Source of the DNA: Acidimicrobiales bacterium
GTDB lineage: Bacteria > Actinomycetota > Acidimicrobiia > Acidimicrobiales > Bin134
Direction of reading: 5' to 3'
DNA length: 64,000 nucleotides
NCBI GenBank assembly: GCA_965231915.1
Contig: OZ246892.1
Span: 1,536,151-1,600,150, forward strand
A program made the translations under genes and the position numbers. Of the stretch, positions 1 through 63,964 are shown one piece after another. How positions within the stretch are numbered: the first letter of the stretch is position 1; every line of letters begins with the position of its first letter. The notes beneath the pieces were generated by a model. That model was given only the letters and a program-made list of their open reading frames with translations, did no database searches and was not told where the DNA came from.

Positions 1-894
1 GGGCTTGAACTCCACCACCAGCGCCTCGCCCTCGCCGATGCGCCAGTAGCCGAACTCGAAGTGGCGGTCATCGGGGGAGCCGCCCACTCGGAGGTAGTGC
101 TCGGTGGTGAGCTGCAACTGGTTCTCGGCTTTCACCAGCGTGTCGGTCCAGTCGGCGTAGTCGGACTGAACCGACAGCACCATCTGGGCCGCGATAGCCA
201 GCCGCTTCGACATCTCGGCCGCATCCGGGGTGTGAATCACCGGGGTGGGCTCGAGTGGCTCGATCATCAGCCGAGGCGACGACTGGGCGTCACGGTCGTC
301 GTAGACGATGCGCATCATCAGCTCCCGCGTCTCCAGGGCGACCTGCATCCAGTTGTCGACGCCGGGATCGTCCACCGAGAGCACGAAATCAACGTTTCCG
401 GCGCCGTCGGTGAACTCGTCGAGCAGGGCGGTGAACGGCGTCTGCGACCAGCTCGGATTGAACTCCTCCAGCACGGCGACAGCCCGGTCGCCCACCGAGT
501 CGACCCCAACCCAATCGGGCACCTTCGGAGTCCACGCCGACATGTGGACATAGGGGGCAGAGCCCCGTTGGCCGGTGACCCGGTACCGCTTGGCCGCGTC
601 AATGGGCTGCACAATGTGATCCTGGTCGGGCGACTGCACCCCCTGGCCGCCCTTCATGGGCGGCGGGATCACCCAAATCGCCGTCTTCTCCATCGGGGGA
701 AGGTTCTCGATGCAGCGCATATAGGCCATCAGCGACATGCGGGTCAGGTAGCGGAACCCCTCCACTCGGTCTTGCTCGTTGGCGTTGGGGGTGCGGTCGA
801 TCACCACCTGGCCTGCGGCTCGCATCGTGTCGCAGAAGTCGTTCCATGCCTCCCCGGTCATCAAGCGCTCGCGTGCGGCTACATCGTTCGTCAT
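1..894 (-). CDS. conserved hypothetical protein, N-terminal part only; runs off the left edge (DUF1214-like, tentative)
   Basis: The minus-strand frame is open from ATG 894..892 to position 1. It is absent from the ORF track because it has no stop in the window. My translation is MTNDVAARERLMTGEAWNDFCDTMRAAGQVVIDRTPNANEQDRVEGFRYLTRMSLMAYMRCIENLPPMEK... Composition is normal, unlike the antisense ORF 61..900(+). Confidence 0.6.
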   Translation of the reverse strand, partial: MTNDVAARERLMTGEAWNDFCDTMRAAGQVVIDRTPNANEQDRVEGFRYLTRMSLMAYMRCIENLPPMEKTAIWVIPPPMKGGQGVQSPDQDHIVQPIDAAKRYRVTGQRGSAPYVHMSAWTPKVPDWVGVDSVGDRAVAVLEEFNPSWSQTPFTALLDEFTDGAGNVDFVLSVDDPGVDNWMQVALETRELMMRIVYDDRDAQSSPRLMIEPLEPTPVIHTPDAAEMSKRLAIAAQMVLSVQSDYADWTDTLVKAENQLQLTTEHYLRVGGSPDDRHFEFGYWRIGEGEALVVEFKP

Positions 895-5267: not shown

Positions 5268-6005
5268 ATGTTCGAGCTCAATCAGAAAACGGCGCTGGTA
5301 ACTGGCGCGGGCCAAAACGTCGGCGCAGGTATCGCCCGTACGCTGGCGTCCCAGGGGGCCCACGTTTTGGTCAACGACATCGTCGTCGACCGGGCAGGTG
5401 AAGTGGCTGATCAGATTGCGGCCTCCGGCTGCTCCGCAGAAGCGCTGCCCTTCGACGTCACCGACGGCGACGATGTGCGGGCGGCCATCGCCGATCGGCC
5501 CATCGACATCCTTGTCAACAACGCCGGCAACAGCGGGGCCGAAATGATGCAGGTCAAGCCCTTCGCGGAGACTGAGCCAGCAGACTGGGCAGGACCCCTG
5601 GCCGTCAACCTAGATGGGGTCATGAACTGCACCCACACCGTTCTCCCCGGGATGATCGAGCGGGGCTGGGGCCGAGTCATCGGCGTCGTCTCAGGGGCTG
5701 GCACCGTCGGCGTAAACATCGGCGTGGCGGCCTATTCGGCGGGCAAAGGCGGTGCGGCCGGGTTGTTGCGCTCAGTGGCGCTTGAGGTGGCCAAAACGGG
5801 AGTCACAGTGAACTCCATCGCCCTCGGACTGATGTCGAACACCGGCGACACCGGTGTCACCGACCAACTGGCCAGGGCCATCCCGACCCGCCGTTTGGGC
5901 ACCCCCGAAGACGTCGCCGCCCTGTGCGCCTACCTCGCCTCCGAGGAAGCCTCCTGGATGACCGCCCAAACCATCCCCCTCGCCGGAGGCTCCATCACCA
6001 GCTGA
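5268..6005 (+). CDS. SDR family oxidoreductase
   Basis: Has the TGAGQNVGAG dinucleotide-binding motif, NNAG, and YSAGK (YxxxK). Confidence 0.9.
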   Translation: MFELNQKTALVTGAGQNVGAGIARTLASQGAHVLVNDIVVDRAGEVADQIAASGCSAEALPFDVTDGDDVRAAIADRPIDILVNNAGNSGAEMMQVKPFAETEPADWAGPLAVNLDGVMNCTHTVLPGMIERGWGRVIGVVSGAGTVGVNIGVAAYSAGKGGAAGLLRSVALEVAKTGVTVNSIALGLMSNTGDTGVTDQLARAIPTRRLGTPEDVAALCAYLASEEASWMTAQTIPLAGGSITS

Positions 6006-55218: not shown

Positions 55219-55449
55219 ATGAGCGTGGTCTTTGACCTCTCTGAGAAAGCAGTCAAGCGGCTCTGGGAAGAAGCCTCGCGTCGTCGGATAAGCGTTGAGG
55301 AGCTCATTGGAGAACTGGCGGACAGCCTGCCAGCGGGTGATCCACTGGAAGCGTTCATCGGCTGTGGGGAGTCTGGTCAAATGGAGCCTTTCGATATTCA
55401 TCGCGAACGGACTGAGCTGGCTGCCAGCAGGCACGACACGGCTGTTTGA
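55219..55449 (+). CDS. ribbon-helix-helix-type antitoxin (VapB-like)
   Basis: Starts MSVVFDLSEKAVKRLWEEASRRRISVEELIGELADSL. It lies directly upstream of a PIN-domain remnant. Confidence 0.6.
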   Translation: MSVVFDLSEKAVKRLWEEASRRRISVEELIGELADSLPAGDPLEAFIGCGESGQMEPFDIHRERTELAASRHDTAV

Positions 55450-55455
55450 GCCTTC

Positions 55456-55590
55456 GTGCTCCTCGTCGATACCGGCGTATTCGTATCTGCCGCTGACCGC
55501 AGAAATATTTCCACTGTTGCAACCCTCAACCGCAGGGATTTTGCAGTGGTGCAGCCAGACCACGGGGAATGGGGTTTCCGGCATGGCTGA
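55456..55590 (+). pseudogene. internally deleted PIN-domain (vapC) remnant
   Basis: Only 44 codons: VLLVDTGVFVSAADRR (a PIN N-terminus) is joined directly to NISTVATLNRRDFAVVQPDHGEWGF (a PIN C-terminus). The central ~90 aa of a normal PIN domain are absent. Confidence 0.6.
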
Positions 55591-56329
55591 GTCGGCCATT
55601 GAGTGGACCGACGCAACTTGGAACCCCACCACCGGATGCGACCAGGTTTCACCGGGGTGCGACCACTGCTATGCCTTGACCATGGCTGGCCGCCTTAAGG
55701 TGATGGGTCAGGCAAAGTACCAAACAGATGGCCATCCGAGGACAAGCGGCCCTGGCTTTGGACTGGCCTGCCACCCGGAGACCCTGGCTCTTCCTGCGAC
55801 TTGGGCAAAGCCCCGCATGATCTTCGTCAACTCGATGAGTGACCTCTTCCACAAGGAAGTGCCAGTTGAGTTCATACAGGACGTGCTTGACGTAATGCGG
55901 GACACCCCCCAACACACCTACCAGGTGCTGACCAAACGTTCCCACCGGCTCGCACGACTCAGTGATGCCTTGGAATGGCCCCCCAATGCGTGGGTCGGGG
56001 TCAGTGTGGAGTCTGCTCGCTATTTGTTCCGATTGAGGCACTTGCAGGAGACCGCAGCTTATGTCCGTTTCATCAGCGCCGAACCGCTTCTTGGGCCACT
56101 GGGAGCTCTTGACCTCACCGGCATCGACTGGCTGATTGCCGGAGGCGAAAGCGGCCTCGGCGCTAGGCCCATGTCGCCAGAATGGGTGACCGGCCTTCGC
56201 GACCGCTGCGTCGAGGCCGGAGTTCCATTCTTCTTCAAGCAGTGGGGTGGCCGCTCGCCCAAGGCCGGGGGTCGCCATCTTGAGGGTCGGACCTGGGATG
56301 AGTATCCGTTGACTGCCCTGGCCAATTGA
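55583..56329 (+). CDS. DUF5131 (phage Gp37/Gp68) family protein
   Basis: Contains IEWTDATWNPTTGCDQVSPGCDHCYA (the three-Cys motif), FVNSMSDLFH, ISAEPLLGPL, IAGGESG and FFFKQWGG. Confidence 0.85.
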   Translation: MAESAIEWTDATWNPTTGCDQVSPGCDHCYALTMAGRLKVMGQAKYQTDGHPRTSGPGFGLACHPETLALPATWAKPRMIFVNSMSDLFHKEVPVEFIQDVLDVMRDTPQHTYQVLTKRSHRLARLSDALEWPPNAWVGVSVESARYLFRLRHLQETAAYVRFISAEPLLGPLGALDLTGIDWLIAGGESGLGARPMSPEWVTGLRDRCVEAGVPFFFKQWGGRSPKAGGRHLEGRTWDEYPLTALAN

Positions 56330-56381
56330 TCATTGGCGGGCCAGAGAGGCAGCCATCAGCCGAGGCATCTACCATGACACG

Positions 56382-56750
56382 ATGTCATTGCAGGAGACCC
56401 TGGCGAGAATCCGCTCCTCGCCCCGTCCCAACAACGAGGAGTCGGCCAAGTTTCAGGTGATTGCTCCGATCCTCCACGCGCTGGGATGGGATACCTCTGA
56501 CGGAGAACAAGTGCTGTTCGAGCACTCAGTGGGCGGCAAGAAGGGTGGAAGAGTCGATATTGCCCTAAAGGAGAGGGGTCGCGTTCTTGCCCTAATTGAA
56601 GCTAAGGCACCTCATTCTGATCTGACTACCCATGTAGAGCAGGTACTGGGTTATGCCTTTCATGAAGGGGTGGATATCTGCGCACTGACCACGGGGGAGG
56701 AGTGGTGGCTGTTTCTTCCCCGTGAACGTAAGGCGGTCACCATGGCCTAG
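56382..56750 (+). CDS. HsdR-N-terminal-like PD-(D/E)XK nuclease domain protein
   Basis: NEESAKFQVIAPILHALGW...GRVDIAL...LALIEAKAP...ALTTGEEWWLF fits the type I restriction enzyme R N-terminal (HSDR_N_2-like) D..ExK pattern. It is only 122 aa. Confidence 0.6.
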   Translation: MSLQETLARIRSSPRPNNEESAKFQVIAPILHALGWDTSDGEQVLFEHSVGGKKGGRVDIALKERGRVLALIEAKAPHSDLTTHVEQVLGYAFHEGVDICALTTGEEWWLFLPRERKAVTMA

Positions 56751-56895
56751 CCGGGAACCGGCTTCACTGCTGGGATATGGTCGAAATATGAATGCGGAGT
56801 TCCAGTCCAGCGCGAGTCGGCAAAGCTGAGCGTTCGAGATCCAAGCCCGTTCCTACACGTCCGCCCAGTACCTCAGCGGAGCCTGATGCCTGGGA

Positions 56896-58200
56896 CTAGC
56901 TCTTCTGTCGGTTGGTGGAGGTGGTTTGCAGGCAATCGGATGCTCTTTGCTTGAGCCGATCTTTGAATAGTTCGAGCGCGCCAGTGGTGGGGACGCCGGA
57001 GGGCAGTGCGCTGATCTCACTTTCCGTGGCCGAGACGACTCCTGAGGCGAATTCCTCGGCGCGGTTGATTGTCTCGTCCAGCGGGATCATCAGATATGCG
57101 GCCAGGCTGGCCAGCGAGTCTTTGGCCCCGGCTCGGTAGACGGTGAAGTCCGACCCGAAGCGCATGGCCATCTCCAACGCACCGATTCTCTTGTTGGCGA
57201 ATGGCAGGGCCGAGCTGATGTCGTAGAGGGGAGCGAGTTTGATGCTCCTTGAGTCAATGGTGATGCTGTAGTTGCGGGCATGGCCGTCGCGGTTCACGAT
57301 TATCCAGTAGTAGAGCAGTGCGTCGCGGAACCTGCGGAGGTCGGCGTCGGGATCGGCTGAGAACCGCTGGATGGCATCGCCGATAGGCGCAATGCCCGGC
57401 CCACCGTGCTTCTCATACTTCTGCTGCGGAGAGCGGCCCAAGGCTTGGCACATATCCTCCTGGTGGACACGCTCCCAGCCGGTGTCAGTCTGTACCCGGT
57501 CATAGCGGGTGACGATGGCTGTCGGGTGCTCTGCGTAGACGGCGATTTCGGACTCGGCAGCGTGCAGCCCAAGCCGCCGGGCAACCGCCAAGCAGAGATG
57601 CTCTACAACCGCCTGATCGGGCCGTCCTGCGGGCGAGGGTTTGAGTATGTGCGTCGTGGGGGTGTTCCCATACGGTCTTGCCCACCCGTCGGCCAGCCAG
57701 TGCAAGGCAGTCTTCGCTTGGAATCCTCCGAGGCTGAAGTAGGCGCTCTCATCGTCGGGCAGCCACCTCGCCGTGTCCGATGCCATCAGCGCGATCTCAT
57801 CTTCGACCTCTGCCTGCGTCAACGAACGCAGACCGCTTTCCCGGTCGCTCAGCGATTGTTCGTTGCCCGCAGGACAGAACTGGACCGCACCGGCGCAATC
57901 GTGCCCGACGCGTGTCGCGATCAATCCGAGGGCGGTGGGTGGCGATACCCCTTCGTTTTGGTACCAGCGCTCCAGCACTCGCTGGTTGTCGGGCAGCAGG
58001 CCGTCGATCCACCGCATTGTTGCTTCCGAGGAGAATGGTTGATCGCGAAACGGCAGGGACATGGACAGAGGGATTGATGCTCTGTTGAGCAGATAGTCGT
58101 GGTCGTAGCAGAACTCGGCACGGCCAGTGCCGGTGACGTGCAGCTTCCCGGCGGGGACACCGTTGAGCAGCACCGTGAGTGCTTCAATGGCGTTGCTCAT
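56896..58200 (-). CDS. hipA: HipA-family serine/threonine kinase toxin
   Basis: N-terminal LTVLLNGVPAGKLHV (couple_hipA) and C-terminal IVNRDGHARNYS (the HipA_C catalytic loop). ATG 58200 overlaps the hipB stop. Confidence 0.9.
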   Translation of the reverse strand: MSNAIEALTVLLNGVPAGKLHVTGTGRAEFCYDHDYLLNRASIPLSMSLPFRDQPFSSEATMRWIDGLLPDNQRVLERWYQNEGVSPPTALGLIATRVGHDCAGAVQFCPAGNEQSLSDRESGLRSLTQAEVEDEIALMASDTARWLPDDESAYFSLGGFQAKTALHWLADGWARPYGNTPTTHILKPSPAGRPDQAVVEHLCLAVARRLGLHAAESEIAVYAEHPTAIVTRYDRVQTDTGWERVHQEDMCQALGRSPQQKYEKHGGPGIAPIGDAIQRFSADPDADLRRFRDALLYYWIIVNRDGHARNYSITIDSRSIKLAPLYDISSALPFANKRIGALEMAMRFGSDFTVYRAGAKDSLASLAAYLMIPLDETINRAEEFASGVVSATESEISALPSGVPTTGALELFKDRLKQRASDCLQTTSTNRQKS

Positions 58201-58439
58201 CTGTTGGGCTCGGGCGGGCGGTCGAAACGCAACTCCAAACCCAGGGAGCGTGTTACCCGCATGAGGTTTCCCAGTTCGCCGCCCCCGTGCCCTCTCTCGG
58301 CGAGGCTGATCCACCGGCGGGATACCCCAGCTTGCTCTGCCAGCTCAGCCTGAGTCAGGCCTGCTACTACTCTGAGTCGGCGCAGCTCCATTCCGAGATG
58401 CCCGATTGTGCTGAATCCTCGGAAGAACTCCGGTGCCAT
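58197..58439 (-). CDS. hipB: Xre-family HTH antitoxin (HipB)
   Basis: Contains the HTH LRRLRVVAGLTQAELAEQAGVSRRWISLAERG. There is an ATGA overlap with hipA. Confidence 0.85.
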   Translation of the reverse strand: MAPEFFRGFSTIGHLGMELRRLRVVAGLTQAELAEQAGVSRRWISLAERGHGGGELGNLMRVTRSLGLELRFDRPPEPNR

Positions 58440-62321: not shown

Positions 62322-63422
62322 CTATTGAACAGGCATCACCAGCGGAATTTCACAGGCCTGGTCTAGGTCGATCTCCACGGTTAGGTGGCCGTTGCCGTGG
62401 GGGCCGGCGCCCCAGGAGGGCATGACGGCGGAGTACAGACCGGTGCCGCCAGCCACCAGGATGAGCAAGGCATCGGGGCTGCTCAGCGCGGGTACAACCA
62501 AGTCCGGGTCTTCGCCCTGGCGGCGCTGGTGGCGGTTGATGCCCGAGCCTCGGGCCCGCACCGTGGACAGTTCTGACCAGGAGCGCTTGGCCCGCTCATG
62601 CATGGCCTCGGCAATGGTGGTGCGGTCGTGGCCCACGTCGGCTAGGGCGATGGCGTGGTCGGGGTTGAGCACCAGCACCTGGGTGCCACGGGCAAAGTGA
62701 GTGTTGTTGGCTCCCAGACCCGACAACGAGGCGGCCAGCACGTTCAGCAGGTGTTCGGCATACACTTCGGGATCGTCGTCGGGAAAGCACAGCACCGAGT
62801 GAGGCCCTTCGGTGCAGGCCACCGTTACCGTGCTCTGGTCGATGTCGTAGCCCAAAGATGTGTGCAGCGGGGGCCAGGGGCTGGCCTCCTCGTCTTCACC
62901 CAGGCAGAACGTGAACTTGCCGGGATGGCCGAGCAACGCCATGTCAGAAGTGCCAGGCCGCCCGCCGCCGATGTTGATCATGGCCAAGCGCACTGCCCGG
63001 CCTATTGAGGCGTTGGCCCGGTGGCCGGGGCCCAGCGCGCCGAACCCCGAAGCAATCCCGCAGGCATCCACTGCGGGACCGTTCACGATGAGCAGCGGTC
63101 CCAGGTTGTGGGTGGTGGCTTGCACCTCGGTCATGTCCATGCGAGGGTCGGACACCGCCCGCACTGCGGCCACTACTGCCGGGAAGTAATCGGGCAGACA
63201 GCCGGCCATCACCGAGGCGATAGCGGCCTTTTCCACGGTGGCCTCTCCCAGATTGGGTCCGAGCTGTCCTAGGGAAACGTCAGCGTCAAGTCCAGAGGCC
63301 AGCACCATCCGCTCTACCCGGGCGGTGGTGGGTATCACCACTGGCAGCCCGTCGGTGCAGCCCGCCTCGTGGAGCTGTTCGAGTGCGGCCTCTTCGGATA
63401 CGGCGGTGAGCTGGCGGGTCAT
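62322..63422 (-). CDS. conserved hypothetical protein, translationally coupled to the UGSC gene
   Basis: A 366-aa ORF with conserved-looking blocks (CTDGLPVVIPT, VEKAAIASVMAGCLPDYFP, GPGHRANASIGRAVRL, GHPGKFTFC). Its ATG overlaps the upstream stop (ATGA at 63419..63422). Confidence 0.7.
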   Translation of the reverse strand: MTRQLTAVSEEAALEQLHEAGCTDGLPVVIPTTARVERMVLASGLDADVSLGQLGPNLGEATVEKAAIASVMAGCLPDYFPAVVAAVRAVSDPRMDMTEVQATTHNLGPLLIVNGPAVDACGIASGFGALGPGHRANASIGRAVRLAMINIGGGRPGTSDMALLGHPGKFTFCLGEDEEASPWPPLHTSLGYDIDQSTVTVACTEGPHSVLCFPDDDPEVYAEHLLNVLAASLSGLGANNTHFARGTQVLVLNPDHAIALADVGHDRTTIAEAMHERAKRSWSELSTVRARGSGINRHQRRQGEDPDLVVPALSSPDALLILVAGGTGLYSAVMPSWGAGPHGNGHLTVEIDLDQACEIPLVMPVQ

Positions 63423-63964
63423 CCGGTGGCGCCCAGCGCCTGAAGCACCTCGTCAGCGATGTCGTCGGCCACCATCTTCATGGCCTTCTCGCCGGTGCCG
63501 GCCACCGGGTGGGGGAGCTTCACCCTGGGAATGTCGGGCATTCCCGCCGATCGGGACACAAAGTCGCCCTGGGGGGAGAACTTTGTGGTCACCAAGGCCA
63601 CCGCCGGGGTGTCGAGGCGGGCGGCCTTGATGGCGTCACGCACGGTGCCGCTGGTGCAGCTTCCTCAATGGCCGTATGCGGCCACTACCGCGTCGCACTC
63701 CTCGGTGATCTCACCCATGAGCTCGTCGTCGGCCACCATCGAGGCGTTGCCCTTGTTCCAGGCCCGAACTTCCACGTCGGGACGCACCCGGCGAAGACTC
63801 TCGCCCACCGCATCCATGAAAGGGACTGAGTCGGGAAATCCGTTGGCCAACAGCCCGATGGTGAGTGCTCCGTCTCTCGCAGAAAGCTCGTAGGGGGTAA
63901 CCGGCTCTCCTGGATCTGCCTGGGGGTCCAGATATTCGATCTCCATGCCTCTACGGTAGTGCAA
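63419..63964 (-). CDS. UGSC-family (seleno)protein with an in-frame TGA (Sec) at 63667..63665
   Basis: Track ORFs 63665..63964 and 63419..63643 are in the same frame. Read-through gives ...AVVAAYGH-U-GSCTSGTVRDAIKAARL..., about 181 aa in total. The start is uncertain: TTG 63964 or ATG 63946. Confidence 0.65.

Follow-up and report, generated by a model that had tools for sequence, protein, structure and literature searches.

The locus described here lies near the end of a 64,000-nucleotide stretch of contig OZ246892.1 (assembly GCA_965231915.1, from an Acidimicrobiales bacterium), which we refer to as the window. It contains two overlapping minus-strand genes. The first encodes a protein of the UGSC family and has an in-frame TGA at the first residue of its U-G-S-C motif, followed within the coding sequence by a putative selenocysteine insertion sequence (SECIS) hairpin; the second encodes a partner protein. 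Gene callers divide the first gene into two open reading frames (ORFs). We conclude that these are very probably one 175-residue UGSC-family gene of a sponge-associated member of the Acidimicrobiia close to 'Candidatus Poriferisocius', in which TGA codon 94 specifies selenocysteine (Sec). The features are collected in Table 1. Positions on the transcript are numbered from the U of the UGA (+1), position p corresponding to window coordinate 63668 - p.

Table 1. Features of the UGSC locus and of a neighbouring region of the window (window coordinates).
Feature	Coordinates	Strand	Details
UGSC-family (seleno)protein gene, complete	63419..63946	minus	ATG at 63946, Sec codon 94, stop TGA 63421..63419, 175 residues
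In-frame TGA, U94, first residue of U-G-S-C (codons 63667..63656)	63665..63667	minus	aligned with the Cys of homologs
Putative SECIS hairpin, +17 to +35	63633..63651	minus	invariance, RNAalifold, covariation, loss in Cys forms
GTG taken by ORF callers as a second start	63641..63643	minus	G25-U26-G27 of the apical loop
GCUGC-ACCA-GCGGC hairpin, +8 to +21	63647..63660	minus	clade-specific alternative fold
ATGA overlap of UGSC stop and partner start	63419..63422	minus	similar junctions in related loci
Obligate partner gene, 366 aa	62322..63422	minus	adjacency; no family model
HipA-like toxin kinase gene	56896..58314	minus	HipA_C and Couple_hipA domains
DUF5131 phage-type gene	55295..56329	plus	

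The two ORFs, 63665..63964 and 63419..63643, are both on the minus strand and share a frame, as 63964 - 63643 is 321, or 107 x 3. Their sole separator is the TGA, after which seven sense codons (GGA AGC TGC ACC AGC GGC ACC) lead to the GTG at 63643. The read-through peptide given in a preliminary description of this DNA, with EECDAVVAAYGH before and GSCTSGTVRDAIKAARLDTPAVALVTTKF after the TGA, was recovered in our translation; read from ATG 63946, the peptide across the TGA is ...AVVAAYGH-U-GSCTSGTVRDAIK.... This ATG, and not the TTG at 63964 with which the ORF list begins, is likely the start codon. It is kept in relatives, including the closest one (locus L001), and the TTG is not conserved in the nearest relative. 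The GTG at 63643 is part of the loop of the putative SECIS and is no start codon. At the 3' end, the overlap of stop and start codons indicates translational coupling of the UGSC gene with its partner, and the UGSC/partner junctions of related loci overlap or abut likewise. A scan of the window for further recoded TGAs (a TGA flanked by sequence with high G+C content at third codon positions) gave no other credible candidate, and a megablast search of the UGSC locus against plasmids gave no match.

With U replaced by C, the read-through product matched the Pfam family PF24696 (UGSC) at 141.3 bits (cut-off 25), residues 6-172 covering positions 3-171 of the 172-position profile. A protein search revealed 118 relatives. 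The full-length ones show ..AYGH-C-GSCT.. across the TGA site, and aligning UGSC and CGSC homologs places the TGA in the column of their Cys. Dozens of relatives of about 97 aa end precisely at ..AAYGH, and some C-terminal fragments start right after it. The Pfam score over residues 6-172, together with the alignment of the TGA with Cys, puts the match beyond chance. The name 'UGSC family (seleno)protein', which the preliminary description had used, is genuine; it is that of NCBIfam NF041046 and is used by NCBI for homologs. One homolog, P0002, has Trp instead of Sec in its database record (..AAYGHWGSCT..), presumably because the gene caller used a code in which TGA is Trp.

In the literature, the 'UGSC-containing protein' with its UxxC motif counts as an established family of selenoproteins. 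It is plentiful in aquatic metagenomes, the GOS data containing 255 Sec forms and 21 Cys forms (PMC2398784), and a 2026 review also includes it (PMC13188914). What the window protein has in common with the family (PF24696; NF041046; the 'UGSC-containing protein' of Zhang and Gladyshev 2008, PMC2398784) is a single domain of about 175 aa with U/C-G-S-C in an identical alignment column; Sec forms are much more numerous than Cys forms. Unlike the members that pass the NF041046 cut-off, it belongs to an AYGH-U-GSCT-[ST]GTVRD subfamily.

A genome scan limited to one genome per species yielded 80 loci. The closest ones (80-94% amino-acid identity) are from sponge-associated Acidimicrobiia metagenome-assembled genomes (MAGs) and from complete chromosomes named Candidatus Poriferisocius, and the remaining ones are from Halieaceae/Luminiphilus (including HTCC2080), other Acidimicrobiia, Planctomycetota and one Syntrophales MAG. 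The Sec codon is TGA in 81 of 81 genome loci and in 76 of 80 metagenome loci. Seven Cys-form loci were then fetched deliberately, so that the final set holds the window plus 168 homologous loci, 157 with TGA and 11 with Cys (TGC or TGT). All 33 sequences of the close clade (sponge-associated Acidimicrobiia and "Ca. Poriferisocius") keep the TGA.

Among the 11 Cys forms, L136 (JAAUYB010053764.1, TGT codon at 611..613) is the only case with an intact 17-nucleotide SECIS core. Apparently, Sec gave way to Cys there only very recently, unless the TGT is a sequencing error. A TGA form was also found in a cultured bacterium, on plasmid pFER4 of Paracoccus ferrooxidans (CP038202.1, 5435..7092; L173). 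There, two annotated 'hypothetical proteins' (5435..5722 and 5762..6004) constitute a UGSC gene split by a TGA at 5720, with the peptide ..VGLAN*GSCTSWSVHD.. across the TGA, followed by the partner gene; the upstream genes encode DsrE, TusA and a cysteine desulfurase, and the sequence 3' of the UGA departs from the invariant core of the relatives of the window locus. Plasmid p2-T1 of Acidovorax sp. T1 carries a similar TGA-form UGSC gene, which is unannotated.

A stem-loop 3' of the UGA is conserved in the orthologs. RNAalifold pairs +17 to +19 and +21 to +23 with +29 to +31 and +33 to +35, giving a stem of 3 bp, a G20.A32 mismatch and 3 bp, closed by the apical loop C24-G25-U26-G27-C28 (63644..63640). 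Positions +18 to +34 (C GGC ACC GUG CGU GAC G; 63650..63634) are invariant in 81 distinct sequences, six third-codon positions included, whereas the third positions flanking this core have entropies of 1.2-1.9 bits. The 17-nucleotide core is common to Actinomycetota, Gammaproteobacteria, Planctomycetota and Syntrophales. In 128 distinct sequences, 99.7% of the alignment cells are compatible with the pairing, and three of the six pairs show compensatory double changes: 17-35 (C-G in 104, G-C in 23), 18-34 (C-G in 111, U-A in 16) and 19-33 (G-C in 127, A-U in one). Pair 21-31 has one U.G wobble.

The same element is constrained within the close clade. At degenerate codons whose amino acid is invariant, 74 of 92 third positions are polymorphic elsewhere in the gene, compared with none of six in the hairpin (P about 6e-5), and the proportion of synonymous differences (pS) in the hairpin codons is 0.022. 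The Cys forms provide the counterpart. Those with the identical GTVRD peptide use the codons ACG, GTC or GTT, CGC and GAT, and the stem is broken. Of the 11 Cys loci, 10 have CGC instead of CGU (9 of 10 when L136 is set aside), versus 0 of 107 distinct Sec sequences, and this change abolishes the A22-U30 pair.

By its sequence and predicted pairing, the hairpin matches the SelB-binding SECIS elements of bacteria in position and architecture, and we regard it as a putative one. The SECIS of Escherichia coli fdhF is likewise part of the coding sequence, closely follows the UGA and has an upper stem of 3 + 3 bp with one interruption. When we folded fdhF, its apical loop GGUC fell at +22 to +25, compared with +24 to +28 for the UGSC hairpin, a similar geometry shifted by 2 nucleotides; the G-U of the loop is at +25/+26 in the UGSC hairpin and +23/+24 in fdhF. 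The spacer between UGA and hairpin is 13 nucleotides here and 11 in fdhF. The two elements differ in the loop (a CGUGC pentaloop versus GGUC) and in the interruption (a G.A mismatch versus a bulged U), and the UGSC hairpin has no extended lower stem and is invariant in sequence across phyla.

Several results weigh against the reading of codon 94 as Sec inserted by way of this hairpin. The product scored 102.6 bits with NF041046, under the curated equivalog cut-off of 125. However, proteins that NCBI itself names UGSC scored 104.9 (P0020) and 84.8 (P0025), the HTCC2080 protein scored 107.5, and only the Natrinema type (the ...GD-C-GSCTSW... subfamily; 146.9 bits) passed, so that the shortfall reflects a different subfamily and not non-membership. 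The literature yielded no experimental selenium incorporation for any UGSC member, and the review describes the family as identified by bioinformatics only (PMC13188914). Our structural model of the UGSC protein is that of a Cys homolog (P0003, 53% identical) and not of the window protein, from an alignment of 37 sequences. The hairpin itself is weak (-6.0 kcal/mol), and lies within the single-sequence minimum free energy (MFE) fold of only 16 of 128 sequences. Folding of the 71 nucleotides after the TGA was no better than that of shuffled sequences (z = 0.68), and in such GC-rich coding sequence the element is not identifiable from thermodynamics alone. Rfam searches (the whole window at gathering thresholds, and 63540..63720 by E-value) gave no SECIS-type match; as Rfam contains no suitable bacterial SECIS model, this null result is uninformative either way.

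Folding of the window also favours a different element. The GCUGC-ACCA-GCGGC hairpin at +8 to +21, which the preliminary description had pointed out while leaving its role as a SECIS undecided, is present and belongs to the single-sequence MFE fold, at -7.7 kcal/mol against the -6.0 of the conserved hairpin. In addition, a stem of +10 to +14 with +25 to +29 (10-nucleotide loop) is pairable in 100% of the 128 sequences and might be an alternative conformer, although its variation is uninformative. Sec could thus be inserted with one of these folds as the functional SECIS, which we consider unlikely. The +8 to +21 hairpin was rejected as a conserved element. In a set of 62 distinct sequences, 39 cannot form its closing pair and 23 cannot form its outer pair, in most other lineages it is lost, and with 79% of cells paired it shows no covariation (tested on 62 and on 128 distinct sequences). 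It relies on G17, the clade-specific half of the covarying 17-35 pair, and forms in competition with the 5' arm of the +17 to +35 hairpin. As an alternative fold it may be harmless, or it may have a regulatory role. The +10/+29 stem leaves unexplained both the third-position invariance at +18, +21, +30 and +33 and the covariation of pairs 17-35, 18-34 and 19-33, and it is precisely pair 22-30 that the Cys forms lose. These observations favour the +17 to +35 hairpin.

The evidence on the Sec machinery is mixed. No tRNA-Sec was found in the window, where the only tRNA is a tRNA-Leu (anticodon UAA; 13322..13409, minus strand), and tblastn searches of the window with E. coli SelA, SelB and SelD as queries gave no selA, selB or selD match. 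None of these genes, nor tRNA-Sec, was found within 12-20 kb around the UGSC gene in 32 clade relatives. For the related MAG bin134, Table S4 of Slaby et al. (2017) lists SelD = 1 but SelA = 0 and SelB = 0, and this MAG carries a locus (L025) with identical TGA and hairpin. It is conceivable that the Poriferisocius/Sva0996 clade lacks selA and selB and recodes the UGA non-canonically, with another factor or tRNA that inserts Cys or another residue and still requires the hairpin. We regard this as very unlikely. At only 90% completeness, bin134 could owe the absence of both selA and selB, which are commonly neighbours, to the loss of one contig. The table itself contains inconsistencies, with SelA and SelB but no SelD recorded for several bins, and for bin134 it does record SelD. 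In another Acidimicrobiia order the Sec machinery is universal, with a SelB that falls below annotation thresholds (10.64898/2026.04.03.716425).

Moreover, the identical hairpin occurs in lineages that carry selC-selB-selA beside UGSC. These three genes adjoin UGSC in L125 and L138, and selA/selB adjoin it in L087, L089, L121 and L122; all six contigs are nearest to Planctomycetota. In P. ferrooxidans pFER4, selB lies 3.3 kb downstream of the TGA-form UGSC gene. The selection on the hairpin within the close clade argues that a SECIS-binding factor is present there. Our confidence in Sec falls short of certainty mainly because of the mixed machinery evidence for this clade.

It could also be argued that the TGA is a true stop, the gene being either a pseudogene or a split gene whose second polypeptide starts at GTG 63643. 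Gene callers output precisely these two ORFs, with the GTG in frame shortly after the TGA, and the public records of the clade relatives still present the UGSC gene as two separate hypothetical proteins. We examined coding constraint in the 33-sequence Poriferisocius clade. Before the TGA, pS is 0.376 and the proportion of nonsynonymous differences (pN) is 0.063 (pN/pS 0.167); after it, pS is 0.285 and pN 0.034 (pN/pS 0.119), whereas the other two frames of the same DNA give pN/pS of 2.7 and 3.9. The segment after the TGA is under purifying selection, with the frame unchanged. The five codons directly after the TGA (G-S-C-T-S) vary at third positions only (pS 0.426, pN 0, pN/pS 0). The invariant G-S-C is among them; a start at the GTG would leave these codons untranslated, and only decoding of the TGA reaches them, which effectively excludes both forms of this explanation. 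The GTG also belongs to the 17-nucleotide block that is invariant for RNA-level reasons, the fused and unsplit Cys homologs are one continuous domain, and the TGA persists throughout the clade and in 157 loci overall, though Cys is only one substitution away. We therefore consider a true stop highly improbable. The claim of the preliminary description that this is a single Sec gene, and not two genes or a pseudogene, is upheld by the full-length PF24696 match, the pairing of Sec with Cys in the alignment, the retained TGA, the constraint downstream (pN/pS 0.12) and the conserved stem-loop. A sequencing or assembly error in an ordinary Cys gene, from whose TGC or TGT the TGA differs by one base, can be dismissed, because the TGA occurs in 157 independently assembled loci, complete long-read chromosomes included.

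The partner gene accompanies UGSC closely. A partner homolog lies directly 3' of UGSC in all 146 loci with enough downstream sequence. The partner had no match in Pfam or NCBIfam, yet its homologs number more than 6000, with about 60% identity across phyla; its representative clusters number 4592 at E <= 1e-3. Its AlphaFold2 model (predicted local distance difference test score, pLDDT, 84.5; predicted template modelling score, pTM, 0.87) gave no Foldseek match in the PDB at E <= 1e-3, the best being class-I fumarate hydratase with E 3.4e-3 and a template modelling (TM) score of about 0.3. The residues invariant in 15 divergent partners include D24, T32, C75, R135, N137, R142, C173 and E176. 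Five partner representatives of about 710-740 aa (P0249, P0259, P0278, P0283 and P0309) matched the query in two stretches, which suggests a tandem duplication of the partner domain; a Pfam domain search with P0249 found none.

The pair also occurs in other arrangements. UGSC-partner fusions are single polypeptides of 533-560 aa with an N-terminal UGSC domain (130-152 bits) in which CGSC is kept. They are likely the 'UGSC/Unknown_1 fusion' of the 2008 paper. The archaeon Natrinema has the pair in Cys form, Variovorax has it in reversed order with trxB nearby, and an Arthrobacter operon reads trxB-trxA-partner-UGSC. The recurrent neighbours of the pair are phosphosulfolactate synthase, proteins of the PEP-mutase/isocitrate-lyase family, enolase and aconitase X, which are weak hints of small organic-acid metabolism. 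A 561-aa fusion on plasmid pVEu of Vibrio europaeus (L176, 4323..6008) lacks the redox motif, with ADMGTSV replacing GH-U/C-GSC, and adjoins aconitase X, DUF126 and enolase genes; the UGSC-like domain may thus also serve in a non-redox, structural role.

The UGSC protein is predicted to have a flavodoxin-like alpha/beta fold. The AlphaFold2 model of P0003 (pLDDT 93.7) consists of five beta-alpha units, and the Cys equivalent to U is located between strand 3 and the N-terminus of helix 3. The best Foldseek matches in the PDB were flavodoxin-like domains of flavodiiron proteins and azoreductases, with TM scores of about 0.5. A thioredoxin fold, suggested in 2008, was rejected considering the five beta-alpha units, the position of the motif after strand 3 and the lack of any thioredoxin among the Foldseek top 50. 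Thioredoxin-fold UxxC/CxxU selenoproteins (Trx-like, Prx-like, SelW-like) likewise have Sec-x-x-Cys at a strand end and helix N-terminus, and a thiol/selenol redox role is presumed alike for both; UGSC differs in its predicted five-stranded, flavodoxin-like sandwich of beta-alpha repeats. Sequence searches of the PDB with the UGSC protein and with the partner gave nothing meaningful. On a plasmid of Arthrobacter sp. ERGS1:01 (L175, 6006..6821), we found a 271-aa UGSC protein whose C-terminal extension contains a CxxC and has a borderline NifU-like match (27.2 bits, cut-off 27).

Based on these features, expression and function of the locus may be pictured as follows. The hairpin, 13 nucleotides past the UGA, would present its invariant CGUGC loop to SelB, which would dock there with Sec-tRNA(Sec) and deliver Sec to the UGA in place of release factor 2. 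Translation would then go on through GSCTSGTVRD... to the true stop, and the ATGA overlap would couple it to the next gene. According to the model, Sec94 and Cys97 of U-G-S-C would form the redox-active pair, placed in the loop that leads from strand 3 to the start of helix 3, where such pairs are usually found. UGSC and the 366-aa partner would act as a two-component enzyme. Electrons are probably exchanged between the Sec/Cys pair and the invariant cysteines of the partner, with a thioredoxin system returning the pair to its reduced state. Most likely, UGSC and its partner of about 360 aa are the two components of a (seleno)enzyme that is widespread but uncharacterised and probably linked to thioredoxin, with no fold recognisable in its catalytic subunit. 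Glycine and proline reductases offer an analogy, and only that. In GrdA/GrdB and PrdB, a separate catalytic protein is served by a small redox component that contains Sec, and UGSC and its partner would likewise combine a small Sec redox component with a separate protein. A further parallel is that thioredoxin and thioredoxin reductase genes are co-operonic in some organisms, for UGSC in the Arthrobacter operon. The UGSC pair differs from them in that no Pfam GRDB match and no PDB match of this kind was found.

For annotation, the locus should be given as one selenoprotein gene with a transl_except at codon 94, and the same applies to at least 32 related sponge-symbiont genomes. UGSC is among the most abundant aquatic selenoprotein families, and gene callers miss such genes. 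A gene of this kind is already known; what is added here is the exact putative SECIS, a corrected candidate hairpin, the obligate partner and a predicted fold, none of which will greatly surprise selenoprotein specialists. The 19-nucleotide hairpin, invariant across at least four phyla, provides a simple search pattern and a target for mutagenesis. Further handles on UGSC are the obligate partner, which has two invariant cysteines, fusions and no Pfam model, and the thioredoxin/thioredoxin reductase operons. Cultured hosts of the pair include Paracoccus ferrooxidans and P. versutus (Sec form, selB nearby) and Arthrobacter, Variovorax and Natrinema (Cys forms).

Elsewhere in the window, the region 55295..58314 between a CoA-transferase gene and an SDR gene holds the HipA-like toxin kinase gene and the DUF5131 phage-type gene. 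Both are absent from the otherwise syntenic L001, so that the region looks like a small mobile or toxin-antitoxin insertion.

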